A program made the translations under genes and the position numbers. A stretch of DNA of 64,000 nucleotides from the NCBI GenBank assembly GCA_964187785.1, contig OZ076409.1, positions 7,752,001 through 7,816,000 of the forward strand, written 5' to 3'. Position 1 is the first letter of the stretch, and every line of letters starts with the position of its first letter. The notes below the pieces were generated by a model. It ran no database searches, was not told where the DNA came from, and saw only the letters and a program-made list of their open reading frames with translations. This DNA comes from Amphiscolops sp. MND2022. Lineage: Eukaryota. Of this stretch, positions 6,034-33,896 are shown in pieces.

Positions 6034-7473
6034 TCTTTTTTACAGAACCAGGGAGTAATTCAGGAAAATTCTGATGCAAGCTCAAAGTATTTGTTCCAGA
6101 AGTGAACGAGGAGAAAATACAATAGATCAGAGTAAGGAAATTGAAAACAGATAAAAGGGGAACTAAAGATGAAGAATCCAAGATTTGGAAGATTGTGTTT
6201 AATATACTAGAACTTTAACTGAACAGACTAAATGAACTGGTAAGAGACTTGAAAATTCAAAAGAAACATTAAAAGGCGTGGCGTAACGTTAATGCAATAG
6301 ACAAAGGCAAAAGAGCAAGTGAAACAATTGTGCGCAAATATGCGTAGAGAATACTGCAATATGATTGGCTGTTCAAATGTCAATTACGTCTGCCAGCGTA
6401 ATTGATTGACTCATCTGACTTCTGCCAACAACGTTGGTATACATGTATGCTGAATGGAATGAATTAGAAAGCGAGAGTATGCGGCAGTATGCGGATCTAC
6501 CACTAACGACTACTCGACAATATGCGTATTGCTGATTTAAATTATGCGGCAGTATGCGGATCTACCAATGATGGATATACGGCAGTATGCGGATCGAGCA
6601 TTGACGTATACTCGACATTCAGCGGTTTTCGCTGTATGCATGACAGAGATGAATTAACACCGTAGATCAACAAGAATGGGCAAATGGAGTGATATTACGT
6701 AATGGAACTGAAGAAACTGTGTGTTTACCACAACTGAAAGTTGAGTGGCAATATTGATATACTGTATACTTGCTTAGTTACCCTTTTTAATGATGTTTAG
6801 CCTGTGATACCAATGCTCATTTGGAACCAATATGTATGTAACAATTTGAACTGTTGGCGCTTTCTAAGACCCATAAATCATTTACCAAGAGATACTGGAA
6901 TTCACCCGGAACATTAATTAACTGCACTTGCATTTTAAATGCAGGACTAACATTACTGGATGTCTCTCCTAATGATAAAATTCAACTCACTAACGGACCT
7001 TAGATTAGATTGGAACATGTTTATTAACATCCTTTTCCTTTTATAAAATAGTCATGTAAAATCAAATAAATTGATTCTGAATTACTTTATTGAATATTTT
7101 CATGAAAGTATTTTGTTTCAGCATCCCTAATATCAAGTCAAATTTGTTTATGTACGATTTAAATACTGGTGAAATGTTAAGAAGGGTGATGATAAAAGGA
7201 AATCAGTTGAAGTGCTAAACTTGTTACCTTTTATGGAAGTTGTTTATGATCGACTGTAAAAGGAACTCATGATATGAGTCTAGGTGGAAACCCTTATAAG
7301 GATGTTTAGGGACCTGAAATCATGACACTCAATTTTTCCGCGGGTTTTCCACTGAAAACGAAAAGTGAGGGAAACTCCATCACCATATGGTCTATATTAA
7401 ACTGTGATTCAGTTGCTTTCAATTTCAAACTCTATTTCTGTTCACCTATAAATTTCCAACTAAAACCTGGAAA

Positions 7474-8446
7474 ATGGACTCACTACAATTCAATCTCGAC
7501 GAGGATCTGGGCTACTCACCCATCTCCCCTGGCGTGATAGACATCTCCAGTGAATCTGGGGAGGAGTTCATTGTTGAACCTGGCAACATTGCCCAGCTGG
7601 ACGAAAGGTTCAGGGTCAATACAATGGGATCAAACATGATGACAGCTTTCGTGGGCTCTGCAACTGCTTCTTTGTTTCCCCCTTCAAATTGCATGGGACA
7701 ACAAGAATCCATCGACACTGCTGGAACCCACATCGAAAGGGAAATCATGGAGTTGATAGAGGAGGGTCCTTCCTCTTCTCCAGCATCTCCGCTGTCTTTC
7801 ATTGATTCAGAGTTCGAAGGACCAGGTATTTCTCCAGTAGCAATTGTCACAGAACCCAGAGTACAGCTTAATAATTATGGTCGGCCAACTGCAGCAATAC
7901 TGCCCACACCAAGGGTCTCATTGCAACCACCAAATGAAACTGTTAGACCAGTGCCGACTTACCTTTCGAATTATGTACAGAATGTCCCTAATTCTCATCA
8001 AGTACAGACAGTAGATACAAATACAGGAGGGGCTACTGACGTACCAACATATGAACTAGAAGACGTTTATCCGCAGGCCGCGTTCATCCCAGAAGAATTA
8101 ACACACCCTGTTGCAAATGACATCACACCAGTAGTGATACATCTGCCCCCTAGAAACATGGGAATTGTCCCCACCAACTTCAATGGTCAATTCCACCAGA
8201 TTGTTCCCAACAGTTATGCCAAACGTCTCCGGATATTGTGACTGGTGTGGCCGTACCTTTGATCAAGTCGCACTGGAAACATTGGGGGACTATCTTGGCG
8301 CTACCGCTTACAACGAGGAAACAGTCAGGGATCGCGGGGTGCGTTCTAGAGCCTTCATAGATGGTTTTGAAGCTGCGTTGTTTATCTTCAAAAATGCAGG
8401 ACTGTCGCGGCCACAGCGTTGCGATGGGTCCGGTGTGCACCAGTAA
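7474..8446 (+). CDS. LTR-internal ORF: acidic/Pro-rich N-terminus and C-terminal CxxC domain; one frameshift near 8207
   Basis: ORFs 7474-8241 and 8165-8446 overlap. Removing one C from ATTGTTCCCAACAGTTATG gives IVP-TVMPNVSGYCDWCGRTF... as one reading frame. Confidence 0.55.
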
Positions 8447-8945: not shown

Positions 8946-9364
8946 TTAATATGAAGAATTAACTTTGCTTTTCCATATACAGTAGTATAAGTCCATGATA
9001 TATCGTTGTTTAACACCTTTCTAGGGTCTTATAAGCCTCGTTATCATTTCTGAATGTCATGGAAAGTGACTCATGAGATATAAATAGGATGACAGTATTC
9101 TGACGAAGTGCTATTATTAGTTTTCCTAGGAATGATGCTTGTAAAATTGCGTGTCATCTTTTTGTGATTTTGTACTTTCTAGAGGAATAAAGGAGCGAAC
9201 ACAACTGATATAACTTTCTTCAGAACCAGTTTGTTCTCTGATAACTATTGCAACCTTTGTTCTACATTTTGGGATCTTTGAACATTTCAAATTGATTTCC
9301 TTTGACTATTTGTCTTCAATTCAAATTCTTGACCCTGCAAATCGATCGTTTTCACTTGAGAAAG

Positions 9365-9918
9365 ATGGGGAATAAGAGAAACAGGAGATCTAGAAGGCTA
9401 GAAAAACCGTCTCCAGACAGAAACCCAATTGAGGCACAAGTAGATACGTCAGCTCAAGGTAATGAGACTTTGACTAATTTTAACTCAGTTTTACAGGAGA
9501 ATTTAGGTGAAAACGTCTCAGAAAACCCAATGGTTGAACCAAGCCAAATTAGTAATGAAATCCAAGCTTGGACCCAGATTATAGAACAAAAGAATAATGA
9601 TAAAATCGAGAGAATGAGAGAAGAAATAGACAACAAGTTTGAAGCAATTCTGAAAGAAATCAAGTCAAACAAAAGTGCATCGACAGTAACAAACCCAAGA
9701 TCAGAGCTTAATGAAAATCAGGAACCCCAAGCGTCGGGGTCTAAAACTAACAAGTCTATAGGAGTTCACGCATCTATAAACAAAAACCCAGAATCAGAAA
9801 ACGACGATAATCCTCTCAGAGCTTCAAAAAAGAAAGACTTGAAACATCCAGCCAAATCATTGTACCAAAACGAACTGAACTTAGAAGACGGAATAATAGC
9901 TTCAAAAGAGGATTATCA
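9365..9918 (+). CDS. Gag-like N-terminal segment encoded at the 3' end of the LTR (truncated at the LTR boundary)
   Basis: ATG 9365, MGNKRNRRSRR..., coiled-coil-like IERMREEIDNKFEAILKEIK. The frame is open to the LTR end (EDYH) and then runs into unrelated flank. Confidence 0.55.
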
Positions 9919-10199
9919 CATTGTCAGTTTCTGCTTTCCTAAACACCTCCCGAAAACAAAGTTCTCGAAACAAAATGTACAGCACCAATTCTCATTAAAA
10001 CATAGAACAGCCATCATACCCAATATCAAAACATGGGACAGGGGGAAAGTTATAAGTTTCAATTCAGAGTTACCGGAGGAGTATTCTCACAGAGGCATTT
10101 TTTGTTTCATCAAGAGAAATGTTCAGCAAAACGTCACAATTTTGTCGAATTTTGTTACTTACATGGACTCTTCAACTTCATGAATCCGATAGGAATCCT

Positions 10200-12234: not shown

Positions 12235-12530
12235 AAAAGTTTCGAAGTTTTCGATATTCGGGTATAACGTTTCAAAGTTCGTATGAAACGTTTTCAAAGG
12301 TCGGATGTAAGGTGTTTGATTTTCGGATGTAACGTTTTCGAAGTTCGTATGTAACGTTTTCAAAATTCGCTTGTTACGTTTTCAAAGTTCGGTAATGAAG
12401 TTTTCAAAGTTTGGATGTAGCGTTTTCAAAGTTTCATTGTAGCTTTTTCGTGTTTCGGATATAACGTTTTCGAAGTTCGGATATAACTTCTTCAAAGTTC
12501 GGAAATAACGTTTTTTGACACTTCGAAGTC
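12235..12530 (+). repeat. ~21-bp tandem minisatellite (AACGTTTTCAAAGTTCGGATGT-like)
   Basis: More than ten degenerate units are visible. Related reverse-complement units occur at ~43895-43995 and ~44215-44260. Confidence 0.85.
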
Positions 12531-14747
12531 CTTTTGCTATTTTTTAGCCTGAGATATGGAGCCGACTTGGGCCTTTCCCGGCTTGTTGCTTCTATAATTA
12601 GTAATAGTAACTCGATTGGTTCTTTGCTTGGTTTCACTGTTTCCTTTGTTTTTCCCGCAAACTCGATTCTGTTCTTTTGTACATCTTGATGAGTGATCCA
12701 AATTATCATTTTGAACATACTACTGGAAATTAATTTGATTCGCGTTTCATTATTGATGCTTGAGTTGATTGGTACGTCATTAACTAATAGTGTCGCGTTG
12801 TTACTTTCCGACCCCACAATTTACAAATGGCGGAGGAAAATCATGATCTGTGATGCTTTTTTTCCAAATTTTGCCAAATCTCCAAAATCTCCACCTTTTG
12901 ATTACTTGACTATTACTTGACTTGATGAACATAATTAACCCGGAATAGAGGTGGAATTTTCTGGATCCATCGTAAAATCGGCTGCTTAAATTTTGAACCG
13001 CAATATCTCCTTAACTATTCAAGTCCGAAAACGATCTATACAGCGTTCGAAAGAGGAGCATCAGGGCTTTCAAATCAATTTTTAAACTGCTGCGCTGGGG
13101 GCCCTTTTGTATCTTTTGCTTAAAGACAATGCTATGTTGTATACTAGCATATGTTATATGTGAGTCATAGACACTGTCAAATCTGGGAACTGAGTTTTTG
13201 TCTATAGTTGTACAGAATTTTTTAGTCTTGCTGATAAAAAAACTTGTCTCAACTTTTAAACCAGTTACCAAACTGAACTATCTTCCCGCACCTGTGCAAT
13301 GATTGTAAACAAATTCGGTCGCATTTTCAGACCGCAGACCTTTCTAGAATCGCTAGGGTGTTCAGACATCAAGCGTTTCTTTTTGGCAGACCAAGCTTTT
13401 TGTTTGAAAGGTCAGATGGAAAAAGTTTCGAATTCAATTTTGGATTTTTAATCGCGCAAACGTTGCTGCTGTTTTAAGCACACAGGTTATATTATTATAT
13501 AAGAGGATGATTGTTTTTGAAATTAGTACAAAAAGTTAAAACTTGCCTATATTCACAGCTACCAGGTAGGGCTACAAACTGCTAAATTTAGGATGAATCC
13601 TTCAGACCGCCTGATCAAAATATATGGTTGTCACGTTTCATGAAAGATTAATGGAAGCATGATGAAAATGCTGGTCAACCTACAAAATGACCAGGAAAAG
13701 TTGAACAATTTCAATTAGGGTGAAAAGTTCAAAGTTGTGCTCGAAGGATCAAAGAGCGCTGGAACAGATGTTTTTTCGAATGAAAGTGCTTCAAATATTC
13801 GTATCAAAGAAAGTGATAGTATTCAATCCACAAGTTAAATTAAATGGCATCTTTGCGGCAAAAAAGACTTTATACTTTTTTGAACCGATAACTCTTTCAT
13901 TTTCATACTTTGAACTTCGTCGGATTGAAATTACATAGAAGGTTTTCAAAGAATGACCAGAAATCAAGTGACATTTCGAAGAATTCACTTCGCCGAATTT
14001 CAAAAGAACCGTTGCCTACTCCAAATTTACTCAATTCACATCTCAAGGCTAACGTTTGTTCGATGATACCAAACTTGAAAAAAAACTTGTAAATGTGCAT
14101 CCTACATCATGAACTTTTCGCGTCCTTATTTTACGTACAAGATACACCAGGGTCCTAAAAAGCTGAAGACTCTCACTTTCGCTGATAACAAATTTCAAAT
14201 TGAATTAAAATTTCACATATTCAATTGACAGAAAGTCCCAGAGATAAAACTTTCTCGAACTTCAATCAAAATAACACCGCCGAAATTTTTCATTTTGGAT
14301 TCAAGACAAAATTATAAACGTAATAACACTTCGCTTGTTTTTGACTTCGACAATTTCTGGAATTTATCACGCAATATCTCGAAAACAACGGTTCGTAACA
14401 AAAAAATCTAAAACAAACAAATCTTTGAATCGAATCTCTAAGTTTTGAAATTATTTTTCTGAAAACGCCATCCTTGAAAATTTACACCGCAAAATGACAG
14501 TCCTAGGTGAAGTTTTACAGGCACCTTCAAAAAATGCCGGCTAATTTTTTATAACACATATAAAATTCAGGGATCATGCATGGAAACATTTTGTAGGATT
14601 ACTATGCTGCTTTCACTATTTGAGTTAAAACTGAAAACATTTCCACTTCTTCACTACCGCGATCACTTTGTTTTCACGCGTGTTTCTCGAGCAACTACCT
14701 TATGTAAGCACCATTAGTCAAATATGGCGCTACTTGGTGACTGAATA

Positions 14748-15463
14748 TGTAACGTCAAGCAAGTAACGCACATACTAGAACTGGGACAATACTTAGGTTG
14801 CCTAGACAGGAGACAATAGTCCTACAACAAGCCTAAATACCAGTTTTTCGTCCCTAAAGGTCTCCTAGGGACTTTTCCAAAACACCGTGGAGACTCCTCT
14901 TATTAGAGCTCCGTGGCGACGTGCCGGCACACTCAAAGTCCGGACACGTCCCACAAGCGTGTAAAAACGTTCCTAAAGGCTTCCCGCGGCTCTACATACT
15001 TCCGAGGTCTGAAAACAGGGTTCTAGCTGAAGTGCATTTTATTTCAGAAAATAACGTCTAAATACTCCATTACAAGGATCTGGCAGATCCGACATCATCA
15101 TAAATCTGTAAATCAATACTAATGACATCTGAATCAATCAAAATTGGCCTTTCTGACATGTTTCTATTGAATTCGCGATTCTCTTCATCTTCTTCGCTGT
15201 GGGATATCGGAATCTCAGAACGTTTTCGTATTAAAAACGCACTTTTCTGGGGAGATGACACAAATCCGAGCATTTTTCTTGTTCTTCCACATCGTGTCAG
15301 TGTCTTTTCTTCTTTTCTGGGTCGGGGTTGGGTTCGTCTGTCTTTTTGTTTGCTTCCTTTTTGGTTTCAACGACCTGCCAGGTCGGCCATTTTGATTCGC
15401 ACACTTTCTGGTTTTTGATCGAATTTTTTATCGAAAATTTGGTGCTGACTGGTGGACGTTACA
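14748..15463 (-). repeat. 3' LTR of element B (716 bp)
   Basis: Near-identical to 33185-33896 (about a dozen substitutions and three small indels by eye). TG...CA termini. Confidence 0.97.
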
Positions 15464-15471
15464 TCCTCCCC
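15464..15471 (-). promoter_or_regulatory. Polypurine tract of element B
   Basis: GGGGAGGA on the minus strand directly abuts the 3' LTR start TGTAAC. Confidence 0.7.
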
Positions 15472-15946
15472 GGGCCACTGTTTGTCGTCCTCGGCAAACG
15501 GAGAAGGATGCATCATTACTTACAAATGGTTTTAGCAACGTGATTTTCAGTTTTTCTCTTAGATCTTACTGCTTCAAAATTTCGATTTAGCACTTTTCAT
15601 TTTAGCACTTTTTGATTATCCTGGGAGAATAAAAATCAGTTTGTTTAAAAACTCTTACCATTCGTTCCAAGCTAGTTTAAAAGTTCTTTTAAGGGTGGTT
15701 GCACTTTTGAGACACTTTTCGAGCCAGAGAAGCGGAGAAGTTTTTACGAAAACTTTAATTGCACTTGTTTTGGCAGTTAGGCAGGCACCAAGCTGGGACC
15801 TACCCACCGGGTAGTTACATTAGCAAAATAACCAAAATAATGTTAATACTTTGTTAACTAAAATAGCACTTATTGTTTTGATAACTGCTGAGGCATAATA
15901 CGTTCTTGGTTAGTTTTGGTTTGATTAGCCAAGTTCAGTACTTGTT

Positions 15947-18900
15947 TCATTCATCGCCAGTGTCATCCATAGTAGTATCGTCATCTTGTAGCACTTCATT
16001 TAATGATACGGCCAATACTTCCGATGGCGGCAGATCTTGCTGATTTAAGCTTGGTAGTTCATACAATTCTAATTCAATATCGGCTGTTAGTGTTCTCGTC
16101 AACGACGTGGGCGTGACTTCCAAAGCTTCTAGCGGCACTGTCTGATCATTTGAAGTAGCATTGGTGGTGATGACCGTGGTTGAGTTAGCTGTTTCAGAGT
16201 CATGGATGGATACATCGGTGTTGGTTGTTGTTGCAATGCTGATTTGACTTGAGGTTGACATCATGGAAGTTGATGTATTTTCAGCAGTAGAAGCCTCCTC
16301 GTGCCCTGCTGCCTGTCTTATTGAGGTCGAGCCCGCTGGGCTTAGTTCTGGCAGCTGGTCTGCGAGGTCTTGGCGTCCATATCGGAAAAATATTTCTTTG
16401 AAAGTCCCAATTGCATTTAAATAACTGTCATATACGGTATTTCCTTCGTCCCTCTGCTTGGCTATCAAATTCATGAAGATTTCCATGGCCATTTGTGGAT
16501 TGTTCGGTATCTCTTCATTCAGGGGCAAGGTCTTTCTATTGGGTTCTCTTGCGATTTTCGGAACCGTCGCTTTCAGAGTTTGAAACCCTTGGTAGATCAT
16601 TCTGTCCACTATCGGCGGGTCTGTCCAATGCGTAGTGTCGGACAGGATTTTGGCTGTATTGGCTTGCGGTGTCACTCGGGGGTTGTACATTCGGGATACA
16701 TCTTGTATTACTCGATGCTGGAGTCTTTCTGGTGTGGAACCTTTTCTTCGTCCACCCAGGCGTCGTTCCGCATTGGTTAGTACTCGGAGAATACCTGGCT
16801 CATCCCAGCTGGCAAAGCCTTGCAATGCTCCAGTGCTGGGTTCTATAGGAGCGTGCAACCATTCTACTGGATGAAGTTCTAACTACATAGGAACAGCGCA
16901 CCGCGCTCTGGCTCGGATTAGGGCACTGAAATTGTACTCGACCTGTTTCTTGTCTTTAATAATCGTGTATGCCATCGGTGGTCGGAAGTTGGCAAAGGTG
17001 CGCACTAGCATTAGAAAATCCGGTTGTCTGGCGTCGTCTTCAGGGTCCACAAAATGTAGAATAGATAATGTAGGTGCTTTTGCGGCAACTCTAAGCGGCT
17101 GTGTAGGGTATCTCAGGGCCATCATTGAACCAAATATAGGCCAGACTATGGGTGCGATCATGGGGACTAGATCTTCAGTTTCTACCAACATGAGGCTGGC
17201 TACTTGCGAGGGTAATAGGAAACCTGGCAGGTTATTGCTGTTGGGTTTTTGACTTAGCGAGTCGTCTAAAGTGCTCATCACACCAGAGACATTGACCCAG
17301 GCTGAATAAACCCAAACCAATAGTGTTTCGATATTCTCGGCGAGCTGGGCGCGCAACTTCAAAGCGCCTGCAGGGTCCAAAGTGTTTAGAATGGCGTTAA
17401 TCCAATTCCGCTGGTTCTTGGCGAATATGAGAAAACTGAGTAGACAGGAGTTGGCTTTAGCTAGGACTAATCTCTGCACCAGGTGCACTGGGCCTTTGTA
17501 GACGGCGCCTAGACCAACGGCCATCAGGTATGCCAGGATTTCAGCAATTGTGGCCCTCTGCATTGCTTCTACATATAGTCTAACTTGCTGCTCATCTAGG
17601 CTGTTTTCACGCTGTACCATCGTTGGTACCCAAAATGGCGAGATATTATACAAGAATATGGGGAAGGGAATTCCATGGCTTTCTGCTGTTTCATTCAAGG
17701 TCACCTGCAGCGTCTCATGCCAAGATTGGTAAGTATGCTGTGGGTTCATTCGGTTTTCTTGCGCTGTCTTTTGAGCTAATACTGTCAACAATACTAGGGT
17801 GGGGGAAACCATGTTGGGCTTTGCGTCGATCGCTTGTGTTGCCACTGGAAAAACAGTCGCGTCGGTCCGAGTTTGTTTTATTCCTTCTGTCTTCTTGAAG
17901 AGAGCTAGCAGCTCTTTGTGGAATTTAGCGTTGTGTGTCCTCTCGTCTAGCGTGGACTCGTCTCTCATTTCAAACCATCCGTTGTCAATCATGTTTGCCC
18001 GTTCTTTTTCATTAGGTTCCTTAACTCGGCGTACCCCATTCTCATCAAAGGTGCGATGCGCCATTTGCATGCCAAATTCAAAGGCAGTAGCATCATCGGC
18101 CAGTAACTGAGAGTTTCCCTCGTATCCTGTACAAGCCTGCAAGGCTTTCGAGATTTCTGCCAAGAGTGCAGAATAAGAGTTTTCACCCGGACGCCAGGTT
18201 GTGGCACTCACTCTCAGGTTCGGTGCTATTATGTAAAATGACAAATTCTGTGAATATGATGCTTCTGATACTAGATATAACAGTTGCTGGAGTGGTTTAG
18301 GTAAGTATACGTATCCTGGGGGCGACATAAAGACTACCCCTACGACGGGCTTCATTCGCTGCACCCGCCTGATCACATTTCTCATTGCTTCGACGTACGC
18401 AATTACCTCTCCTGTCATCACTTCTTCCGTCAGTCTACGGTTGCCTCCTTCAAAGTATTTTAGCGTTCCTCGAAGAGCCAAGTGGTCGATCATGTTGCTA
18501 TATATTAGGATCGGAGGGAATGGAATTGTCTCTGTGTGGTTGACGGTGGGACCGAAGACCTTGCAGGTCACCTCTGCCATTTCCTCTAGCGATGTGCAGG
18601 GCAAGTTCATCACGCGAACATCCATCAGGGTGTTGTTCATGTTCGCCGTTGCTTTCATCGTGGAGTCCATGAACAAGGCAATCCTTTTCTTTTGCAACAT
18701 CTCTTTGCCCATGGGGAGTAAGGTTGTTATGTCCCTCATGAAATCACGGCTTCTCATCAGTTGGTCATCGTATCTTGCCGGTCGTTGTATGGCTAATTTT
18801 ACTTTGGAGGGGAGTGATCTCACCAATGATGACTTGTCTTTATGAAGATCTTCCCTCACTCTCTCGAACCAGGGAGGAATGCGGTCTAGAAGGAGTGTTG

Positions 18901-20185
18901 GCTTCTTTACGGGCCTCAAGTAATGCACTCCGATCGTTGCTTTTTCGAGGTTTTCCACATCCTCTGGGCTTCCTTTGCTGGTAGCTGTTTCGAATTTCTG
19001 CACACCCAATTCTGAGTCTGGATTCTCTGATTTCGCTTCTCGCTGCAGACGCACCGCGTCTCTGGCAGCAATGTCAAGCTGTCGTGCCTCTGTCTGCGAT
19101 AGGAGCTCCTTAGAGAATCGCACTCGCCTAGGCTCCGGCTGTTGCACTGGGGATGGATTCGGGCTGGAGTTCGTTGCATCCGAATTAGCTAAGTCTCTGG
19201 CCCTTTTCTTTTGAACTAGCTGTTCGATCTTGCTTTGTTCCTTTCGATTCAGTACGTCGCGGAGATCGATAGGTGCCTTGGCTGCTTGCCTTTCTGCTAG
19301 TTCTTGCTGTTTCTGTTGTTCTTGGCGTTCTAGGTCGGCCTGAAAACCTATTAGGTGATGTGGGTCCTGCGACGTTGAAGGTAGCAAGGCATCGTAAGAG
19401 TCTTGAAATCCGATCATATCTGTCATGATGGGCACGTCGAGCGGGTTCCGCATCATTATGGTTCTCGGTCTTTGGCTTGTATTTTGGGTGGCATCTTCAT
19501 CGTTCTGCGCGCACGTGTGCGCTTCTTCTACCCCTTCCCCCCTGAAAGAAGAAGGGAGCATGAGTTTGTTGTTCTCTTCCAGGCGCCTGACACTAATTGG
19601 GGCGGATGATGGTGGGAGCGTCAATATTGGCGGAGGCACTGTTGGCAAAAGGCATGTGAATTGCTGTGTGGGCGATGGTTGCGTTGATTGATAGTCGCGG
19701 GCGCTCTCAGGGGCAGTTGTCGACGATATTGCTGATGCTTGCGTTAGGTTCGTTTGAAGACGTCGTTGCTGCTCCATGGGAGGCCTATTAGGCTCGTCAT
19801 ATCTCAGGTGCGATCTGTGGTCATCAAAATGGTGGGTGAGATCGTGACCTTGCCACGCGCCATTGTGGAATTCCGCAGTTCTGCGGTAAGATCCAATTCC
19901 AATTGATATGGAGAGGGTGAAGTCCGGATGTATTTCGAGAGATTGCATTTGAGCAATTAGTATGGCCATTCCGGTCACCAGTGATGGGGAAGGGTCCTCT
20001 TGTAGGGTCGATTGGACCAGACCAAGCTGGTCAATTCTGGTTTGAGATTCTTCGACAGGCAACGAGGACACGGGAGCTTCTTGCATGGCAATCGTCAGTG
20101 GTTGTGATTGGTCCATTCTGCTGGTGGTCGGTTGCGAGCTTGTTGTTGATGGAGCTGGCATGCGGGTTTTAGCCGATTGATCCAT
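15947..20185 (-). pseudogene. Third ORF of element B (env position), ~1,400 aa, SGNH-hydrolase-like central domain, one in-frame stop
   Basis: ORFs 16883-20236 and 15947-16858 share a frame, split by TAG at 16883-16885. First ATG at 20185. Motifs IALFMDS, ILIYSNMID, VVFMSPP, WRPGENSYSALLAEI. Confidence 0.75.
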
Positions 20186-20487
20186 TAAAGAGATAGGTAG
20201 CGCCTTGGATAAATAACTATGGTGGATATATTGCAAATGTGATGATATATGACTGGCTGCGTCAAGTGCATAGGAATTGACAGGACTGAACTAGAAAGAA
20301 GAAAACAATAGACGTCAATATGAGTTAAAATATTATTGCTGATGAATGCAATTGATATGATAAACATTAAAAGACAAGATAAAACAGATTCGACAATTCA
20401 CGTTAAAAACTAGTTCAGGGATTACTCAAACAACACATATGCTAAGAACAGGACGAGTGGCCTCCCTTTTTTTTGTGCCACAGTGAT

Positions 20488-23400
20488 TCAGTCAAATTTG
20501 TATTTCACATGGTTATGGTGTGTCCTCACTAACGCAATTGATACATACACCCTATCATGGAGGACTATGTCAATATTGGAATCAATGAAATGATCTTTCA
20601 ACATTAAATACCAAGCTGGTAGCAGGTTGATTGATCTCTCAGGGTCATAGATGGGAAAATGGATACGGGTGATCTGTGCTCGTATGAGCTTCTGCACCAG
20701 GTCTATTAGGCACAGATGTAGCACATCATGTAAAATGGGGTGTTTGCTAGAGGCTCTGGTGATTAACAGGAACATTTCGTTATTCCACGGCGTTGCGGGT
20801 GATCTAGTGAGGTGAATACCCTTTCCTACGGCTGGGCGTAGTCGAAAAATTTCTTCCTGGCCATATTCCCTGATGACGTAGCGCGCCATTGCTGAATGTG
20901 ACAAAAGATCTGCCGGACAGCATATTACTACGATACCCATGGCTTGCAAAATGTCAGTTCTTTGTAATAAATCCATGATAGATAGTTCGGTTTGATCTTC
21001 GGATGCGTTATCAATAGTTTTCCCGTGATTGTGCTTTGATTGTCTTGACTTGGTGAGATGATCCAGAATGGCCTTACGGTCTTGCCACACTGTTCTGCGT
21101 AAAGGTCTGTCTCCCAAGTTGGTGCAAGACCAATCGTGAACTACGGAGAGTGCACCCAGCACGGTCACTGAGTTCTCGAATGTATACGTGTGTTTGTCTA
21201 ACAGGCGTATTTTGGCTTGGCGACAGAAGATGATAGCTAGTAGCTGTAACCAATGTTGACTGAGGAATTTCCCACGATAAATATCTGCTAGATGGAAGCA
21301 TAAGGTGTCCTCGAACTCTACAAGCGTACGCAAATTTTCTAAACAAATCAGTAGAGTTCCTGGAGTCACTGGTGATGTCTCGTCCAAAGAGGTGACCAAT
21401 AGCCACCAACCAGCCGTTGGGTGATACACATCTCCAGGAGGGGAGGTTACACCATATTGCTGCCATAGTCTTCGCGCGGTGATACAGCGGACCATTGCTA
21501 TTCGTGTGTCACTTGGTTCTATTTTTCCAAACATCATCGATGGTGGGAGTGGGGGTATGATTGCGGTCAACGTGAATTCTAATCCACTCTTTTCGTGCCA
21601 TGTCCATTCCTTAAATCGGTAGGTGGGGCAGTCTGATGAAGATGTTTCTTGCATGGCTCTTAGTGTGGTTTCCAGGGGTGGGACCACGGTTGGTCCAATG
21701 CTCGAGTAGGTCTTTTCCACGGTAATCACAACGTGATGTACTTGTGGAACCTCTTGGTCCTTAGCTTGTATGTTTCGGATGTATTGCATGTGGTCTTCCG
21801 TTGTTTCAGTAACAGCTGTGTCTGGGGCAGGAGCGTCTACTCCCCGGGCCAATCGCTTGTTCTGTGGTTTTCCACTAATTAGGTTGACGCAACTACAGTT
21901 ACGGGAACCACATGTTCCGCAGCGATATCTGGGAGTTCTATTGCGTCGCAGCAAATAGGGTGGTGCTCGTGAGGTTGTTGTTTGTTCCGCCTCTGGTTGC
22001 TCTGATGATAAACTTTCTGCAATGTTGGGTAGTGTCATTGCACGTTCCAGGGTTTGAGATTGTGCTCTAATTCGCAATCTGCCTCTCGATCTGGCGTACG
22101 GTCGGTGCGTGCTTGCAAGTGCTCTGCTTGATGAGTTGGCACTTCCTCTTCTACGATTTGGAGGTCTGCCTCTTGGTCTGCCTCTTCTACTCACGGTTCT
22201 CCCCGATGATGGCGATGCTTCCATGCTGTGTCTGGGTTCTGGAATTTCTCTGTCGGTTCTTTCTGGGGGTTCGGGTCTCTCGAAAGTTTGTAGTCCTGTC
22301 AAGCTACCAGCTCGAGAGCTGAATAGTGGGAAATTGCTCAATGTGTCGGTTAAAGCTGGGTTCGAGAGCAATGGTGCTGATGTTCCTGATGGCGAGGGTA
22401 TCAGACTTGGTGTTGGTTCTGGCCTGACTTCCTCTTGGTCTGAATACAGTGGTTCCAAATCATCGATATCAGGGTAGGTCATTGGTTGTTGTGGCTCTTC
22501 AATGGGTTCTTGGTCGGATTCCGACTCAGAAGGGTATCCAAATTGACTGAATCGTCTTCGAGGGATTCCTCGTTCTAGAGCAGACTGAGTACGTGTTTGA
22601 ATCGTGCTTGGGGGAACGGGCGCGGTCGGTTCCATCTCGAATGATGCCTCTGGCAGTTGTTCTGGAAGAAATGAGTCACGTGAGATGTCTGACGTTATCT
22701 CCTCATTACTTTCCTCCACGTATGGGTCTGCGATGATGGCAACATTCTGGTCTAACCCAAAGGGTTGATGTGCCGCCCAATCCCACGGCGCAGGCACATG
22801 CTTCTTCAGGCGTTCGGATTGAACCTTTTGTCCTGTATCCAAAACGTATAATCTTCCATCTTGTAATACATCTGTGACCTTGTGAGGTCCACGCCAGGCA
22901 CGAAGGAGTTTGCGGGTGCCACCTTTAGGAATTATGTGGCAGAAAACCCAAACAGCATCACCCACCGCGTGAGCTTTTGCTTTCAAATGCTTGTCGAACT
23001 TCTGTTTTTGTCGTATTTGCGCCTGGTGTGTGTTTCGGCGAACAAGTTCGTGGATTTTTTGTTGTCGAGCAAGTAGGTGCTCCACAAATTCTTCTTTGGA
23101 CTCAAACTCTCGCGCTGCGAATTCTGGGTATAAAAACGAGAGTGGAATGGATTTTTCTGCGCCATGTTGGAGCATATACGGGGAAAATCCGGTGGTTGCA
23201 TGTATGTCTGGTTGAATTATAAGCACCCAAGACTCCGTCTATGTGTTCATCCCAGTCAAGCATTCTTCGAGACGTATAGACTCGGAGCAAGGTCAGTAAT
23301 GTTCGGTTTTGACGTTCCACTAAACCATTACCTCTCGGATGAGTTGGAGTAGACGTTATTTTGGTTACTTGCGAAGCTTTCATCAGTTCTTGAGCAATCT

Positions 23401-26400
23401 CAGCAGTAAAGTTGGTGGCATTGTCCGATTGCATCCTGGCAGGTGTGCCGTGTCTTGCAAACCATTTGTTCAGAATAATCTTTGCAGTCGTCTGGGCGTC
23501 ATATTCGTCGTGTGCACATGGGATTGCCTCTGCAATATTAGTGAAATAGTCGATGATGACTAGCAATCCATTATTTCCTGATGTTGTTTTGCACAACTTC
23601 AAATGGTCGAACTGCACCAGGTCAATAAAATTGCTGCTGTTGATACTTTGTAACGGATAACAGGGATTCCCAGCGGGATGTTTCGTCTGTTGGCATGTTA
23701 GGCAGTGCTTAATATGATTGACAACATCACGCTTGATGCCTGGCCAAGTGTGGCGCTCCTGGATTCTTGTTAACACTTTACCAACTCCTTGGTGTCCTGA
23801 TTCGTCATGCGCTCTGTACAGGATTTCGTGTTGGTATAGCTGGGGCATGACGATCATACACGGTCGTATGTGCATCGCGCGTTGCTGCGGAATGTAGTTG
23901 ACACACAAGATATCGTTCTGATTCAGGAACAGTAAGTCTTTCTTCTGGTGAAAGTACCGTTTGGCAAAGTCCTGCACGTCTTCGGGAAACAACGTATCTT
24001 CTAATGGCTCGTTCTTCATGAGTTTCTTCAGCGCTAGCAGATGTACATCTCTGTGTACATCTCTGTTTTGAGCTAGATGAAGATCTTTCAATCCGCGCAT
24101 TGTTGACTGATGCTCGTGAAGCTCAGTCCCGACTAGCCGGAGGACGTCAGCTTGTTCCTGACACGGCGTAGGCAATCTATGCAGTGCTGGGTCACGTTGG
24201 ATGGTGTCCAGACGTGCCGCCGGTACTTTGGTTGTTATGCTAAGGATACAATTCGGTCTGTCGTCTTCGGTCGAAGTCGGAGTTGTTTCCCATTGCACCT
24301 GTGGGTACCATGGTAAGGAACTCAGGGACGGGTCTGCGGTTAGGTCTTTTTTTGGTAGCCTTTTCAAAATGTACAGCACTGGAAGTTGTGCTCGAGCTTC
24401 CGGTGGAAGCTCTGGATGGTTTGGGATAAATTTTCCATGTTTGTCGATATAGGGCACAGTGGGGAGTTCTTCGTAGTCTTTCTAGGACATGAAGCTGAAT
24501 CCCTTGCTCACTTCTGGTAGAGTTTCCACAATCTTCTCCCGATGTACGTAGTCATTGGTCCTTTTGCTAAGACCATCCACATTTCTATGTTGTGTGCGCG
24601 GTCTGTGGATCGTCTTGAAATGATATTGGTCAAGGCGCGCAATCCAGCGTCCAATCATGGCTTGATCCATTGAATATGTCTTCAGCCACGAGAGAGCCTG
24701 GTTATCCACGCGCAGCGTGAATTCTCGACCTGCAAGGTAGGAATGAAACTTCTCGATGAAATAGAATACTGCATACATTTCCAGCTTCGGGGCGCCATAT
24801 TTCATTTGTGTTTTAGTCAGTGACTTGCTGCCATAAACAATAGGACGAAGAATGGTTTTCCCATTGTATTGTTGCTCTTGGTGCAGTATGCCGGCTATAG
24901 CAACTGCACTGGCATCCGTGTCTAGAACGAAACGTCCTTCTTCGTTAGGCGCTGCCAAAGCTGTGGCATCGACCAATGCTTGCTTTACTGCATCGAACGC
25001 TTCTTGGTGTCTTTCTTTCCAGTAGAAGTGTTGGTTCTTCTTTAACAACTCCTGCATAGGTTGCACCTTAGCAGCATGGAAAGGAATGAAATCTCGGTAG
25101 TAGTTCGCAAATCCAAGGAAGCTCTGTAATTCTTCTCTGTTTCTGGGGCATCCATTCTTGGATTTTGCTGACAGCAGCCGGGTCAGGCTTTATGCCTTCG
25201 GCCGAAACTACTCTTCCAAGGTACTTGGTTTCAGTGCGCATGAAGTCACATTTCTCTGCTCGCATCTTGAAACCTGCCTCTCTGAGACACTCGAACACTT
25301 CTCTAATTCTTTCCAAGTGGTCTTCAATGGTTTCTGTCGCAATCACTATGTCATCTATGTATGCCATGACAACGCTTACATGTCGTTGTTGGATCTTCTG
25401 TAGAGCTCTCGTGATCGATCGCTGAAAGGTGGCCGATGCATTGCATAGCCCGAAGGGCATGCGCCGCCATTCGAACAGGCCAAGTTCACACGCGAACACC
25501 GTTTTTCTGCGATCACGCTTCTTTAGTGGAATTTGCCAAAAGGCCCACGCCAAATCGATGCTCGTGAAGATCTTTGCATTCCCAATCCTCGAGAGGCTTT
25601 CATCGATTCTGGGTAGTGGAAATGCGTCCTTCACTGTTACATCATTTAGCGGGCGGAAGTTACAGCAAAAGCGAAGCTCGCCTGATTTCTTTTTCACCAT
25701 GACTATGCCACTGGCCCACGGAGAGTAGGAGGGTTGTATCAGACCAAGGGCCAGCAAATTCTGCACTTCCTGATTAGCTTTCGCCGCCTTATTAGGGGAC
25801 ATTCGCCTAGCTCCTTCTCGGTGTGGTATAGCCTCCGGCTCTAGCTCTATCTTGTGCTTTGCAATCTTACACCTACCTATGTCAGACTTATTTTTCATGA
25901 ATAGGTCTTCGTACTCATTTAATATAGTTTCTAACTTGTTTCTCGCCTCTTCCCCCCATGAAGAAAGGACGGAAGAGAGGTCGGGGCCTGGGATTGCTTT
26001 TAACAGCTGTGGATCTGTCCTTTTGCGCTTTTCATTATCTGATAAACCTGCCTCAGACGGTTCGGTCGACGATAAAAAATTTCGGGCAAAAGAACTGATT
26101 TCTGAACTGGTGTCCATATCAAAGTTTCTATGTATTTGATTTACATACTCGGCAGAAAGCTTCGAAGCTTCACCTTCAGTTTGCATAAGAACAGAGTTCA
26201 ATACAAAAGTGGTAAGCGCCGCTTTGCCAATTACAGTTTGTGCTTTGATTTTCACCCGTTCTTTATCAGTTTGGTTTCGGATGGCTAAAAATACTATACC
26301 TCCTTCTCCCACAGAAGTTAGTGTATCTTCTGAAACAAAGACTGAAGTGGACTTTATGCTACATGAGTGGACCGTTACATTTCGAAACAGGAAAGTGTCT

Positions 26401-29400
26401 GGTTGTGGCGTGATGATTTTCGCACGCACTATCTTCCTTTCGAATGGACCTAGTATTATGTCTTCAGTGGAAACTACAAACGATGGTTCGTGGTCGCTTA
26501 CCTCATGAGTGGCTTTAAAGATTCGAGGTGTTTTGGGATCGCGGATCGTCACTTTCATTGCTGTTAGGTCCACCAACACGTTGTATGTGCGCAAGAAATT
26601 GCGACCCAGGAGGAAATCCTCTGACCCAATATGATCGGCTATGACTACAAAGTTGGTCTTCAGAGTGTATCCGCCGAGCTGAAAGTTTACATCTTCGGCT
26701 ATACCCACGGTGGTGATGTTTTTGCCATTGGCAGCGAAGAGTTAAACGTCATATGGTGATAGGCTCAGCATATGCTGGGAAGCAATCTTTTTGTACGCAC
26801 TCAATGAAAGGATGGAAACTCCCGAACCGGTGTCAATCATGCCGAAAAGTGGTATCGGCTTTTGCAGAGGAGTTCCGAACGCTACTACTAGCGAGGCTCG
26901 CTCATCAATCTGGGCCTCTCCTTGTGCATCTTGCACTCCAATGCTATAACAACGCAGTTCTTGCCTGCCCAGATATAGGCCTTGCGGAAAGTGTCCTTCC
27001 AGGACAACAATCGCATCAAACCTCATGTCCACACCATCAACCGTGATCGCTACGGGGACTGGCGCGATTGTCTTCACTCTCTGTAACTGGGCCAGCTTGG
27101 TCTCATCATTCCTTGTAAAGTGGGGCAGTGGTCGCGAAGCTATCGTCAAACTGGTATTGCGGCACAGTTCTTCTTTCAATTGTGCTAATGTGAGATTTGG
27201 ACGCGCCTTTTGTTCCACGGATAACAATAGATGGATGGATATTAGTGTTTCAGTACAGTCAGGCGCTGGTGCCTCAAGTGTAGTCAAGATTTGTTTTTCG
27301 CCACAAGTTACAACCACAGGGCGTGATGGGCCTCCGTCTTCTGAAGTCGAGATTACCCTTATTTGATCCTCTGAATCGCAAAAGTCTGTTGAGTTTGCGA
27401 CCGGGGCGTACCACGCCGCTTTTACTTGTTCTTCCGTTGCAACATTGTGAGGCGTCATACAATCAGATGCCACGTGGCCTACATGACCACAATTAACACA
27501 AAATGCTGATGTTCCTTGTTCTGGTAGGGTTGCGGGCATTAAGTCATCATTCATGCCGCGTGGGTTCGATGGGCACATCCATTCTCCAGCTGTGTTCTTG
27601 CGACACGAATTAACTATTTGCTGTACTGGTTTCCGTGCTCGGTCTTTCAAAGGACAATCAGCTGCAAAGTGTGAAGGATCTCCACAGTTGAAACATGTTC
27701 GCTGCGGTTGTTGTCGGAAAGTTGGAGGCTGCTGTGGGAGTTGCTGGGCGTTGGGCGCTTGAGGGGCTTGTGCCTGTGCTTGGTTTTGCGGGTTCGTTGC
27801 GACAGGCGGCTGTTGTTGTTGTTGTGGTGCAGGATACTTTTCTGAACGTGTCGAACCACGCATACGCAGGTTTTGTTGTACCGTGAATCGTAAGGCCTCC
27901 ACAGTTGGGGGTGTGTCTACATACTGTTCCTGTGCATACATGAGTGCAAGGTTTCGTTTCAACTCATAGCTTCGTACCCCTTCGATGAACTTCTGCATAA
28001 TTTCATAGCGCCTCACCGCAACTTCCCCGTTGGGAAAACCTTGGCTGCGCAAACCTTCCAATGCGTCAAGGTATTGCATGTAGTCTTCATCTGGGGACTG
28101 ATTACGTGTACGGAACTGTTGTTGTATTTGGATCTTATTAGATCCTGTTCCAAATCTTCGTGCTAGCAGCGCGAAGACTTTTTCATCAGTATCGCGTTCC
28201 GCTTCTGATTTATTCGTAATATAGTCTCGTGCTTCATTTTCTAGGAACTCCACAATGGTCCATGCTTTGTCTAAAGGAGTGTCTTTTGCATGGGCTTTTT
28301 CCAGGTAACGCCTCATCAGCATTAGCCAGCCATCCACTATTCCATCGCGTGTGCCACGATACTTGGTAGGTTTGTTCTTGGATTCTTTGGCTGCCAATAA
28401 TGGCTCCAGACCTTTGGACATCGCGGTGGTTATTGCTTCCGCCAACGCTTGGCTGTGTATAGCGTTCGGAGCATTGTCCTTGCCCTTGGCAGCTCCCTCC
28501 ACCGTTCCAGTGTTCAGGTTCCTTCTCGAGATTGTCTTCCTTTGCGTGCTAGAGGCCAATGGCCGTAATTGATCGTTACTATGGGGTAACATTGAGCGTT
28601 TTGTGCCAAGCATTGACGAAACAGCAGTTTGATATTCGATACTTCCTGATGCTGTTTTCATATTACTATGCATTTGGTCACTGGCCGCTGAGTAATAGTC
28701 TCTAGTCGTTGAGGCACCTCTAGCATAAGGGTCGAATGAAGGGGGGCCTGATATGTCACAGCGCTGTACTTCAGTTTGAGTGGTTGTTGACAGTTGGGTT
28801 TTCATCGGCACCTGCTTGTACGCTGCGGGTGGTTGTAACTTTGGCTGTTTTGTCTGATCCGGTTTCGTCACACATTGGCGTTTGGCAACTTCTCGGTAGG
28901 AGGGGTGCTGACTAGGAGACGCACTCGTAGATGGTATGTCGGCAGAGTTTGGTGCCATCGGCACGGGTGAGGAACGGTTTGGTATCGTCGCCACTACGGT
29001 CTTCACCCCTAGGGTTAAATCTTGAACCGTAGTCATGAGGTCCACCATGCGTTTGTCGACATCTAAATCTCTGTGGTGCATCATTTCGGACATGTGTTTT
29101 AGGCGCTCATCCGCTTGTCGATCTCTTTGCACCATTATTGCCGTCATCTCCGATATACGTTTTTCCGTCAGGTCCTTGACTGATGCTACGGACGTTTCTA
29201 TCTTGCCCTGGTTGACTCGTCCTTCCATCTTGATCTCACTCACCTCCTTTCGTAACTCTTCTACTTCCATCACCAAAACTTCTGCCCGACGGACATGGTC
29301 AGTGTTTTCCTGGGCTAACTTTACTTGGACTCATTTCTATTGTTCCATACTACGTCCAAAATCTTCTCGTATGGCTTCAGTTTCTTTGATACCTCTGGCG

Positions 29401-30092
29401 ATCGTCGAATTTGGGGATGCTGCACTGCCGGCATCGGAATGTTGGAGCGTTGCCGTGCGTTCCAGTCGTAAGGTGCTGGGACCCAGCAATGGTGGTGTAG
29501 TGGAGGCATAGTTCTGGAGAGTCACTCCTTTTCTGGTCTTCCGCTTTCCCGGCTGACTTTCCGAAGGAGCAATCGCAGTGTCACCCAGTGTATTTCTACT
29601 ACTATCAAGCACTGGTACTCCGGAACCCAGCGGGTCCGCATTCGTGCCCAGGTGAGGGGTGATTTCTCCCAAAGTCATGCCTACATTCATATTCTCAACC
29701 CACTTACTGATATCCGAGCTAGTAGCTACTTCTCTGTTCGAGATCAGCCAGTTCCCGGTAACAATCACGGAAGTGTTCAGAGGAGGCCATACGTTGGTAT
29801 GGTTCATGGGAGTCGCATTAGCTAATTCGGTGCTATCAAAGGACATCTTTGAGGAATTTGCTTGGCTCGTACGCGCAATTTGCGAATTCTGCTCAATGTT
29901 AGACACGTTATCTGACATTACGTCGTCTAAAAACAGGTCGGCGATTATATCTAGCGGTGCTATTTCAGCTTGTGTACTCAGGGTATGCAACTCTTCTATG
30001 TTGTTCGCGAACGGGTTGGTAGCATGAAATTCACTAGACTCCAATGATGTCTCACTCGCGAATAACAAATATTCCCACTCACTCAAACTCAT
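20488..30092 (-). pseudogene. gag-pol polyprotein of element B (~3,200 aa when repaired)
   Basis: CCHC knuckles CFNCGDPSHFAADC and CVNCGHVGHVASDC. Protease IDTGS. RT MPFGL..YIDD. RNase H LDTDAS..VDNQAL. Integrase HDESGH..CLTC, QFDH/QSDNA/VERQN, WRGPH. Lesions: stops at 29337-9, 29331-3, 26742-4 and 24482-4; frameshifts near 25145 and 23205. Confidence 0.95.
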
Positions 30093-33000
30093 TTTTACTT
30101 GCACTGTTTTTGCAGATCAACTAAATTAGATTTTCTTTCGTCTTTCACTCACTCCTTCTCTTCAACAAATTGAATTAAAGGCAACTCAAAATGGAAGTTT
30201 TGATATCCCTTTCTCAGATATTCTAACTAGATTGTCGTACTATTAAGTTCTGGAGTTTGTAGCTCGTGATCGCCCTCTTGATTCTATTTCGAGATCAGCT
30301 GACTGTCATAAACTTCACACTCCTAATTACATGCACTAACTCAAGATTACATGCACTGGTGTTAGTCACCACTAATCAGAACAGAAAGGTTTGTATCCCC
30401 ACTAACTGGAGATAGTTATTCTACACAAATTCAAAGTTAAGCTTTTTAAGTTTTTTTTAAACAGTTACTCACACTAAACTATGCTTTATCCAGCCACAGG
30501 CTATGTGGTCGGGATAACTAAAGGTTTTGGCGCGCTATCAGAACTTTGCAGAGATTTTTTCAGGAAATCACCGCGCTTTTCTTCTGGGAGCGTATACTAT
30601 GCCACTCGTACTGACTTTCAATAGGGGAGCACCTGGGGTGTTGCTACAACAAGGGGTGTCAGGAACTAGACCTTGGGGATGAGTTGATGTTAGGACACTT
30701 TCAAACAAGAGAGTTATCGTAATCTGATCGTAGCACGGTCAATGGAAACACAGTTCTTCACTATTTCGAATGCTACTATACTCAATTTTCTGTCTCGAGA
30801 CGCACCGCGTCCACTATCCACGTCTTCTAGAGAACTCCTAATTGCGTTCTAGCTCTCTCGCGTCACTTCTCAGTCGAGGCAAACGTGAATGCACCTAACA
30901 GTTTGCACTTAGGTGACCCTGGTGGCCGTTGGGATAGGAAATACAATCTTTGCGTTTTGCACTCCTATGTCTCGTAGACAGCTTTTTGACAAACCCAAGA
31001 TTTTAGGGTTGAGCTAGCTCCATTCTGATTACTTCAACGGGACGTGCTATGGATGCCTGATGTAGAACTAGGGTCGTTTAAACCTTCACTCTCAACTACA
31101 CCTACGAAAAGTGTACAATTTTTCGCAAAATTTCTCAAAATCGGCAATTCTTTCGCCAAAGTGCACGCCTGGGGAAGGTGAAGATCACTTCTAGAGCTAC
31201 TAGCGACCTGAAAATTTAACACGGTATATTACTGTGACCAAGTCGTGGGAAAATTACCGCCGATTGCGCCAAAATTGATTATACGTGACTTGAGGTCGCT
31301 TCAGAATGTTGTTTGAAGAATCGACTATGTTGTGAAATTTACAAAAGTCTGTCAAACTCGCCTTCTAGGCTTCCTAGCTACCTGAAATTTTGTATGCGAG
31401 CGTGAATTATGCCCACGTAACAGAAAAACTAAATAGCGGGGTGCTCAGGTCAATATTCCGCAATCCGAGTTGACAAAACTATGATGTACCCTATTAGTCA
31501 CTTCCTGGGGCCAAAATTCACAAAAACGTCAATTTCTCCAAATTGGATAGTAGCAAGCTGCTCAAAATGCACAAATCGTCGGGATCTAGTGCAGTGTGTA
31601 CGAAAATGCAAGAATTTTAGTGCTGGGATACTCCGAAGGTATTGCACTATGCTCAACTAAAATTCGATTTTTTTTGACAGTTTCGTACAATTTTTGAGCA
31701 AAACTGCGGCTAAGATTTCTCAATCACTAGTAATGGTAGCGCTACGAAAAATACACCACTAACGTAACGTTTTGCGGACTACACGATGGTGCAATCCGTT
31801 TTGAGCTACTCCTACTAGGAGAGATTTCGACCTATCTTGGGGACACTACTCCAGTGTTCCGAAAATGTCGCAAAAACAACGCGTTTTCGGCTATTTCTCA
31901 GCAACTACTGGTTGGAATTACTCGCGGTTTTCTGCGTTTGCAACGTTATACCCTATACTGACGGAAAATAGGCGAGCGAAACCTGGCAGGTTCCAAATAA
32001 GGTCTCTCAAAATAACTTTCAAGTTGCACCTTTGACACTCTGGGAACAAGGTGAAAAATACGTATTTTCCCTAGGAACTTTTTATTTCTCGGTTCCCCGA
32101 TGTTGGGGATGGTTCTAACAGTACGGTAAGAAGGTGTGACAACTTTATTTAGGGGAGTGGGGTCATTTCAATTATTACTTTTGATGTTATTACTCTCAGG
32201 TCTATGGGGTCCTCTACTCAGGTCTATGTATATCAAAGAAAATCAGAAGTTAAAGTGTCAATTCATATTGGGGAATGCTAACAATCGTCTTGGCAGTAGT
32301 GTTTCGTACTACCAAGCTTGGGAACAACGTTTTTGGGCTGATCTCAAAGCTTGGGAACAAGTGCCCAAGGCTTCGCCCTCACCAATTTTGGTCTTTTAGG
32401 CCAAAATTGATGTTTTCTCTATAAAAATCGCTAATTTTCTCAATGTTTTAACAATTTAGCCCAGGAAATTTTTCGGTTCCTGACCTAGCAAGTCTGATGG
32501 AACGTTTTTTTTATTCCCACTGGCCGTATCCTTTTCCACTAGATTTCAACTTTCAACACCTCAAAAATCGGTATTTGAGCTATATATGGTGTTATTTTCA
32601 AGGTTTTCGCGCTCAACTTTTTATTCAACTGGTCTAAACACCCACAGGGTATTTTCCCCAGTTAATTTTAGTGGGAACAGGCCTGGGAGTATGCTTTTTG
32701 GGCCGATTATTAGCAAGAATTAGCAATATAACCCGATTGACGTGGGTATACGGCAACTGCAGGGGTGCTGGAGGTGTGATGTCGGAGGTGCTCACACACT
32801 GTCGTCAGCTAATTGGGGCCTTCAGCACTCGTCCTCCCGGTCCCCATACAATGCTAATTTACTGAAACGGAGCTACAAAACCCATTATAACCAATTCCGG
32901 ATAGGCCGGATTAGCATTTTCAACAGGTATTATCAAAATACAAGGGGTACGCTGTCTGAAATCGTCGATTTTCGGTTTCAGACCTCGGAAATACGCAGGA

Positions 33001-33150: not shown

Positions 33151-33168
33151 GTCCCTTGTGGGGCGCCA
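33151..33168 (-). promoter_or_regulatory. Primer-binding site, tRNA-Lys-like
   Basis: TGGCGCCCCACAAGGGAC matches the known tRNA-Lys3 PBS TGGCGCCCGAACAGGGAC at 15/18, but lies 16 nt inside the 5' LTR end. Confidence 0.7.
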
Positions 33169-33184
33169 TAAAAACTACTCTAGA

Positions 33185-33896
33185 TGTAACGTCAAGCAAG
33201 TAACGCACATACTAGAACTGGACAATACTTAGGTTGCCTAGACAGGAGACCATAGTCCTACAACAAGCCTAAATACCAGTTTTCGTCCCTAAAGGTCTCC
33301 TAGGGACTTTTCCAAAACACCGTGGAGACTCCTCTTATTAGAGCTCCGCGGCAACGTGCCGGCACACTCAAAGTCCGGACACGTCCCACAAGCGTGTAAA
33401 AACGTTCATAAAGGCTTCCCGCGGCTCTACATACTTCCGAGGTCTGAAAACAAGGTTCTAGCTGAAGTGCATTTTATTTCAGAAAATAACGTCTAAATAC
33501 TCCATTACAAGGATCTGGCAGATCCGACATCATCATAAATCTGTAAATCAATACTAATGACATCAGAATCAATCAAGATTGGCCTTTCTGACATGTTTCT
33601 ATTGAATTCGCGATTCTCTTCATCTTCTTCGCTGTGGGATATCGGAATCTCAGAACGTTTTTGTAATAAAAACGCACTTTTCTGGGGAGATGACACAAAT
33701 CCGAGCAATTTTCTTGTTCTTCCACATCGTGTCAGTGTCTTTTCTTCTTTTCTGGGTCGGGGTTGGGTTCGTCTGTCTTTTTTTGCTTCCTTTTTGGTTT
33801 CAACGACCTGCCAGGTCGGCTATTTTGATTCGCACACTTTCTGGTTTTTGATCGAAATTTTTATCGAAAATTTGGTGCTGACTGGTGGACGTTACA
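33185..33896 (-). repeat. 5' LTR of element B (712 bp)
   Basis: Direct repeat of 14748-15463. Confidence 0.97.

Follow-up and report, generated by a model that had tools for sequence, protein, structure and literature searches.

The third open reading frame (ORF3) of a Ty3/gypsy LTR retrotransposon carries a predicted SGNH-fold domain that appears to be a pseudo-esterase rather than a hydrolase. Alignment of its relatives showed that four of the five catalytic and oxyanion positions are lost, that the block I Ser is kept and that this pattern is conserved to ~30% identity. The element is 19.1 kb long and spans positions 14748-33896 (minus strand) of the 64,000-nt stretch of Amphiscolops sp. 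MND2022 DNA analysed here (contig OZ076409.1; hereafter the window).

Judged on its sequence, the element is of the Ty3/gypsy type by its LTRs, its gag, the order of protease, reverse transcriptase (RT), RNase H and integrase, and its Ty3-like RT. The LTR pair was identical in 701/717 columns of a pairwise alignment. Pfam placed the gag knuckles, RT, RNase H and integrase in gypsy order, with pol matches to RVT_1 (E 5e-35), RT_RNaseH_2 (4e-27), Integrase_H2C2 (3e-17) and rve (2e-6), and the closest solved relative of the RT in a PDB sequence search was the Ty3 RT (E 1e-46). The target duplication is not clean, because only 3 nt (ATA) are exactly common to the flanks of the element. The window copy is defective, with stops and frameshifts through gag-pol and an in-frame stop in ORF3. 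From its 5′ end, the element comprises the following features.

33185..33896, minus strand: 5′ LTR (TG...CA), 712 nt, by alignment to the other LTR
33151..33168, minus strand: primer-binding-site-like sequence starting TGGCGCC, 16 nt inside the 5′ LTR, which we take to resemble a tRNA-Lys site
26742..30116, minus strand: gag with two CCHC knuckles, stop-interrupted (PF00098, E 5e-9)
23102..26741, minus strand: pol (protease, RT, RNase H, integrase), with stops and frameshifts in the window copy, by Pfam
20488..23238, minus strand: long C-terminal extension of the integrase with a macrodomain-like end (macrodomain part about 20520-20980)
20291..20310, minus strand: splice-acceptor-like site (pyrimidine tract and YAG) immediately ahead of the ORF3 frame
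15947..20290, minus strand: ORF3, in the env position; its first Met is at 20185 and, in the window copy, an in-frame stop lies at 16885-16883
19811..20053, minus strand: small conserved N-terminal domain of ORF3, aa 80-160, by identity to the relatives P0330/P0331
18125..18688, minus strand: predicted SGNH-fold pseudo-esterase domain of ORF3, aa 535-722, by AlphaFold2 model, structure matches and residue tallies
17288..17803, minus strand: predicted globular all-helical domain of ORF3, aa 830-1001 (block pLDDT 60-94)
17114..17170, minus strand: conserved uncharged hydrophobic helix of ORF3, aa 1041-1059, the only membrane-anchor candidate
14748..15463, minus strand: 3′ LTR (TG...CA), 716 nt, with a purine-rich tract ahead

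Several parts of the element outside ORF3 were also unusual. The integrase extension is ~900 aa long, and its macrodomain-like segment scored 0.89 to PF01661 Macro and 0.90-0.91 to unnamed phage clusters in the ESM Atlas, with zero matches in Pfam, PHROG, NCBIfam and PDB sequence searches. We treat its macrodomain identity as a lead only, presuming a TARG1-like look, and found no published example of a gypsy element with a macrodomain in the literature searched. Ahead of the active protease, at ~26870-27320 (minus strand), lies a possible degenerate second protease-like copy (27% over 49 aa, pairwise E 0.002). The ~230 aa between protease and RT (~25850-26560, minus strand) have a beta-rich look and were without a match in Pfam and PHROG searches; we assume that they are perhaps a decayed dUTPase. 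The leader (30117-33184, ~3 kb) has no ORF longer than 106 aa and no tandem array. The element apparently interrupts one copy of a different dispersed repeat, which recurs in both orientations. Elsewhere in the window, the following features were recorded.

14509-14681, 33896-34199, 35028-35564 and 48421-48912: pieces of the dispersed repeat
863-1471, plus strand: ORF reading like a gypsy integrase tail
1690-5762, minus strand: long ORF with a zinc-finger-like stretch
7408-8241 and 9296-10183, plus strand: further long ORFs
12248-12536: 22-nt tandem array
43034-43402: abutting perfect-spacing inverted repeats
52516-52837: 28-31-nt tandem array

An earlier note on this DNA had placed ORF3 in the env position, and its location after pol in the Ty3/gypsy order bears this out. 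The end of the ORF at 16883 did not hold. The open frame in the window copy (16883-20290, minus strand) is stopped after codon 1135, and of 127 relatives in which the motif occurs at the stop position, 123 read on for more than 30 aa, the relatives being single chains of 1277-1435 aa (~1,400 aa). Among 580 YAG sites in the internal region of the element, the acceptor-like site ahead of ORF3 ranked first, sites in the leader at 33036 and 32040 ranked 4th and 5th, and three had at least 15 pyrimidines in 17 nt. Ten relatives that read through the acceptor place carry Gln there, compatible with CAG. This suggests that ORF3 may be expressed by env-style splicing. In comparison to P0330 and P0331 (relatives of ~30% identity), the conserved parts of ORF3 were aa 80-160 and aa 474-1149, with 37-43% identity in the former versus 18-20% in the linker. 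ORF3 also contains long low-complexity regions, including its ends. An ORF on the plus strand (18237-18845) was rejected as an antisense shadow of ORF3, its DUF5985 match (E 0.0013) being below the cut-off.

The proposal of an SGNH/GDSL-hydrolase-like domain in ORF3 came from three quoted sequence blocks, all of which lie in the minus-strand frame 16883-20290, and the limits then given agree with aa 535-722 (nt 18688-18125). That proposal hinged on an SGNH alpha/beta fold, which structure prediction returned. An AlphaFold2 model of aa 500-780, built from a 65-row alignment (64 relatives picked for coverage and spread), had a pLDDT of 82.8 and a pTM of 0.81, with five strands alternating with helices. 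Against a target set of 48,161 chains, the best VIA-align match to this model had Z 12.6 and rmsd 3.5 over 174 aligned residues (model residues 19-227), and a second comparison reached Z 12.8 (across both, Z 12.6-12.8, rmsd 3.5-3.6, 174-177 aligned). Most of the best 50 VIA-align rows, which were those considered, carry GDSL/SGNH esterase names; the remainder we assume to be SGNH-fold proteins. Foldseek gave seven PDB matches at E ≤ 0.001, in line with the SGNH assignment, and Foldseek on BFVD agreed. The modelling thus confirmed that the predicted 18125-18688 domain belongs to the SGNH-fold superfamily, with blocks I, II, III and V in order. No nearest SGNH family can be named, because the structural matches share 6-17% identity with the domain and the top rows are tied.

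Sequence profiles did not detect this fold. None of the 65 alignment members matched the SGNH/GDSL Pfam families (Lipase_GDSL/GDSL_2) at E ≤ 1, Pfam gave an SGNH match in 0/44 distant relatives, and PHROGs, NCBIfam and PDB sequence searches left the SGNH fold undetected, one PDB search returning solely repeat-driven PPR design matches. The best ESM Atlas score for the domain was 0.78, to unrelated helical families. Since Pfam misses the domain, ORF3s of this sort may have been catalogued as ‘unknown’.

We then examined the active-site residues, using the block numbering of PMC10792757 Table 2 and setting the register of blocks II and III by motif comparison with that table. Block I Asp542-Ser543 lies at nt 18667-18662, block III at 18505-18478 and block V Arg700 at nt 18193. 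In a wide tally of 174 aligned rows, drawn from 172 proteins that include many decayed fragments, block I was well kept (Asp 61/68, Ser 61/67), as were the Asp of block III (75/84) and the His right after it (74/83). The block II Gly occurred in 2/82 rows, the block III Asn in 7/84 and the block V His in 2/86, the last site being Arg in 67/86. Among rows below 45% identity, Ser was found in 21/24 and the His after the block III Asp in 38/41. The near-full-length set (38 rows from proteins of at least 1250 aa, out of 306, falling into few 90% clusters and so not independent) had Ser in 35/36, Cys (28) or Leu (8) at the block II Gly site, Ile at the oxyanion Asn site in 34/37 and Arg at the block V His site in 37/38, with Tyr in the other; the replacement of the block V His by Arg, first read in the window copy, is therefore a family trait. 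The block V acid (Asp) is also replaced family-wide. The Ser/His register was taken from structural alignment, read from the ends of the alignment ranges and assuming no gaps near them. Residues 1-178 of TesA (1u8u/1j00) align to model residues 35-222, so that Ser10 falls at model Ser44 and His157 at model Arg201, and residues 21-216 of PAF-AH (1es9) align to 19-222, setting His195 on Arg201; in ORF3 numbering these are Ser543 and Arg700. Because Arg fills the His site in nearly all near-full-length rows, the residue loss is family-wide and not decay of the window copy, and because Gly, Asn and the acid are also lost family-wide, the domain reads as a pseudo-esterase. In comparison to an active SGNH/GDSL hydrolase, the predicted domain has the Ser and is without the Gly and Asn of the oxyanion hole and the Asp-x-x-His motif. 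Basic and acidic residues are about equal in number (pI 5.7-8.8).

The hydrophobic helices noticed earlier at 17100-17800 fared less well as membrane segments. A second AlphaFold2 model (aa 730-1135, 48 rows) had a mean pLDDT of 56.5. Four of five hydrophobic stretches had a mean hydropathy of 1.0-1.2 and lay within its well-predicted globular part, where they look like core helices, and a multi-pass membrane protein was rejected on this basis. One candidate membrane helix, aa 1041-1059, was retained. In the 48-row alignment it had a mean hydropathy of 2.04, 0.1 charged residues per row and a hydrophobic moment of 1.26. It is amphipathic, and it may be buried because of its three prolines, high moment and low pLDDT (about 33). 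A structure search with the helical domain (aa 830-1001) gave a best Z of 3.7 and BFVD none at E ≤ 0.001; given the mean pLDDT of the model, the missing fold match shows neither novelty nor absence of a known fold.

Searching 1.84 billion representatives with phmmer gave 159 relatives at E ≤ 0.001, reaching down to about 25% identity, of which the best 150 were taken. The SGNH part was 60-61% identical to P0006/P0203, compared to 37-38% in the linker. Relative clusters held 51-581 members (P0331, 581), with many equal-length full copies, and mostly came from long contigs, as repeats in one or few large genomes would. A search of metagenome and viral contigs for loci of relatives confirmed none. 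In P0089, a stretch with 97% identity to the P0330 domain is fused to a homologue of the integrase extension (E 2e-8), which indirectly suggests an element of this kind as the setting of the distant clade too. In P0215 (1540 aa), a coiled-coil-like N-terminus is followed by an intact GDSL domain (PF13472, E 1e-7) and then by a degenerate SGNH domain; the cluster representative of the latter, P0154, matched the window at E 3e-5, and block III Gly-x-Asn-Asp is kept. The separate intact domain of P0215 is the only one among the relatives to match a Pfam GDSL profile, and P0215 links the family, at the level of predicted domains, to a working retroelement-type esterase. Tandem duplication is not proven, since its two domains share just a 9-residue match (E 0.26). 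Another relative, P0001 (1402 aa), consists of the C-terminal half of ORF3 twice over, in tandem.

Partly by analogy, we give about even chances to the pseudo-esterase being a lipid- or acyl-ligand-binding module, housed in a cytoplasmic accessory protein by which particles or RNPs are tethered to membranes. The third gene of a Ty3/gypsy lineage would have acquired a retroelement-type SGNH esterase, as the intact domain ahead of the degenerate one in P0215 would favour, and the captured domain would have lost catalysis and stayed as a binding module. A spliced subgenomic RNA would yield ORF3 as an accessory protein of the cytoplasm, whose old acyl pocket, with conserved Ser, Asn, His and Arg along its walls, would hold a lipid or acylated ligand. 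The SGNH domain and the one hydrophobic helix may then anchor particles/RNPs at membranes during assembly, trafficking or the loading of vesicles, the protein being a non-fusogen. The fold match, the family-wide residue loss, the better conservation of the SGNH part than of the linker, the many full-length copies in clusters and the first-ranked acceptor-like site are consistent with this, and the retention of the domain at 30% divergence without the canonical triad points to binding over hydrolysis. The ZfL2-1 esterase binds liposomes despite active-site mutations, according to the sections of PMC3905857 available to us. However, that binding is described there as charge-driven, via an arginine/lysine-rich face, whereas the domain here is near neutral. 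Moreover, the ZfL2-1 esterase ranked only 49th by Foldseek (E 0.011, 16% identity), so no special kinship is shown, and the candidate helix may be buried. The near-invariant Ser and block III Asp-His would also be unneeded by a pure scaffold.

Those same residues are the main argument for a rewired enzyme, in which the block I Ser and the His after the block III Asp would work together in a new geometry and keep the domain active as an acyl hydrolase or transferase. In the rows seen of PMC10792757 Table 2, known SGNH enzymes can do without the Gly, the Asn or the acid, but every enzyme there keeps the block V His; here both oxyanion donors are also replaced, and the block I and III Asp are structural in that source. 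We regard this reading as distinctly unlikely. Its extension, in which such an enzyme from a spliced env-like RNA would remodel membranes and allow cell-to-cell movement of a high-copy gypsy lineage without a fusion protein, the Arg holding an anionic head group, has a lower probability still. Rather unlikely, in our estimate, is an Oskar-like role, in which the dead SGNH domain would have nothing to do with lipids and would instead bind RNA or protein, as a scaffold for RNP granules or for the assembly of particles. The OSK domain is itself an SGNH fold without the triad that binds RNA (PMC10792757, as far as available), and the long low-complexity regions and the Arg at the His site would fit. 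Yet the domain is not basic overall, and its residue pattern is opposite to that of Oskar, where the Gly is retained and the Ser is gone. Oskar 5a4a did not appear among the best 50 structural matches per search (Foldseek PDB, VIA-align).

A host-directed accessory protein, acting for example against silencing or innate defence with the SGNH part as a protein-interaction surface, is improbable to nearly the same degree as the rewired enzyme, and slightly more so. The macrodomain-like segment on pol of the same element and the host-regulatory domains of giant Burro elements, described in the accessible text of PMC6431247, speak for it, but no target or motif was identified and the macrodomain is a lead only. 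A true Env substitute, a surface protein driving membrane fusion and infection, we regard as very improbable. The env position, the acceptor-like site and the hydrophobic helix near the C-terminal part would suit it, and a spliced leader exon outside the frame could supply a signal peptide. Against this, the window ORF3 has no RxK/RR furin site and no hydrophobic N-terminus after Met36, which upholds the earlier view that it lacks a classical Env layout. Cys numbers 5-8 in closer relatives (19-20 in the distant clade), and BFVD gave no viral fusion protein match at E ≤ 0.001 with a model of moderate confidence. Of the class I Env features (signal peptide, furin site, fusion peptide), the predicted protein thus displays none, and its one helix is marginal.

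The family bears on the role of non-Env third ORFs in LTR retrotransposons. It adds a Ser-only SGNH residue pattern and a helical domain without a structural match found, and its SGNH domain is a compact, well-predicted unit suited to assay. We found no published description of this ORF3 family, and by titles and the starts of abstracts only PMC5408684 concerned an SGNH ORF3 in an LTR element (Repbase, subscription journals and supplements being outside the literature covered). The words ‘esterase’, ‘hydrolase’ and ‘macro’ are absent from the main text of PMC13524379, on env-carrying gypsy elements.

The earlier note had cited non-LTR ORF1 esterases as precedent. This stands for ZfL2-1 (PDB 4C1B), where an SGNH fold occurs in a structural/accessory protein of a retrotransposon, although that esterase belongs to a non-LTR ORF1 and is an active, coiled-coil dimer with a basic surface (PMC3905857, available sections). 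A closer precedent was missed. In the bdelloid rotifer Vesta LTR retrotransposons, a GDSL ORF3 replaces env and a membrane role was proposed (PMC5408684, in the text available; echoed in that of PMC5718144), so that in both families the ORF that follows pol, where env would be, holds an SGNH domain. The Vesta ORFs, from 1.3-kb amplified clones, are described in that text as keeping the invariant catalytic residues and having no CC/TM domains, whereas ORF3 here is about 4.3 kb, catalytically degenerate and equipped with extra domains; the likeness drawn here is one of arrangement. The same source left a lipolytic or fusogenic role of the GDSL ORF3 to future work. It also describes GDSL derivatives in Athena-L (Terminon) elements, which resemble the family here, by description, as retroelement-borne SGNH domains without catalytic residues, but Athena-L is Penelope-like, not LTR. 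The Oskar OSK domain (PDB 5A4A) shares a non-catalytic SGNH fold and has the residue pattern [-+---] versus [+----] here, the latter being absent from the groups examined in PMC10792757 Table 2. The giant Burro gypsy elements of planarians are likewise oversized, with many accessory domains, but have env homology inside a single polyprotein, and an SGNH domain goes unmentioned in the accessible text of PMC6431247. As far as these sources go, an SGNH domain in the place of env was already known from Vesta, and an inactive retroelement GDSL domain from Athena-L; the Amphiscolops element presents a new version of this arrangement.
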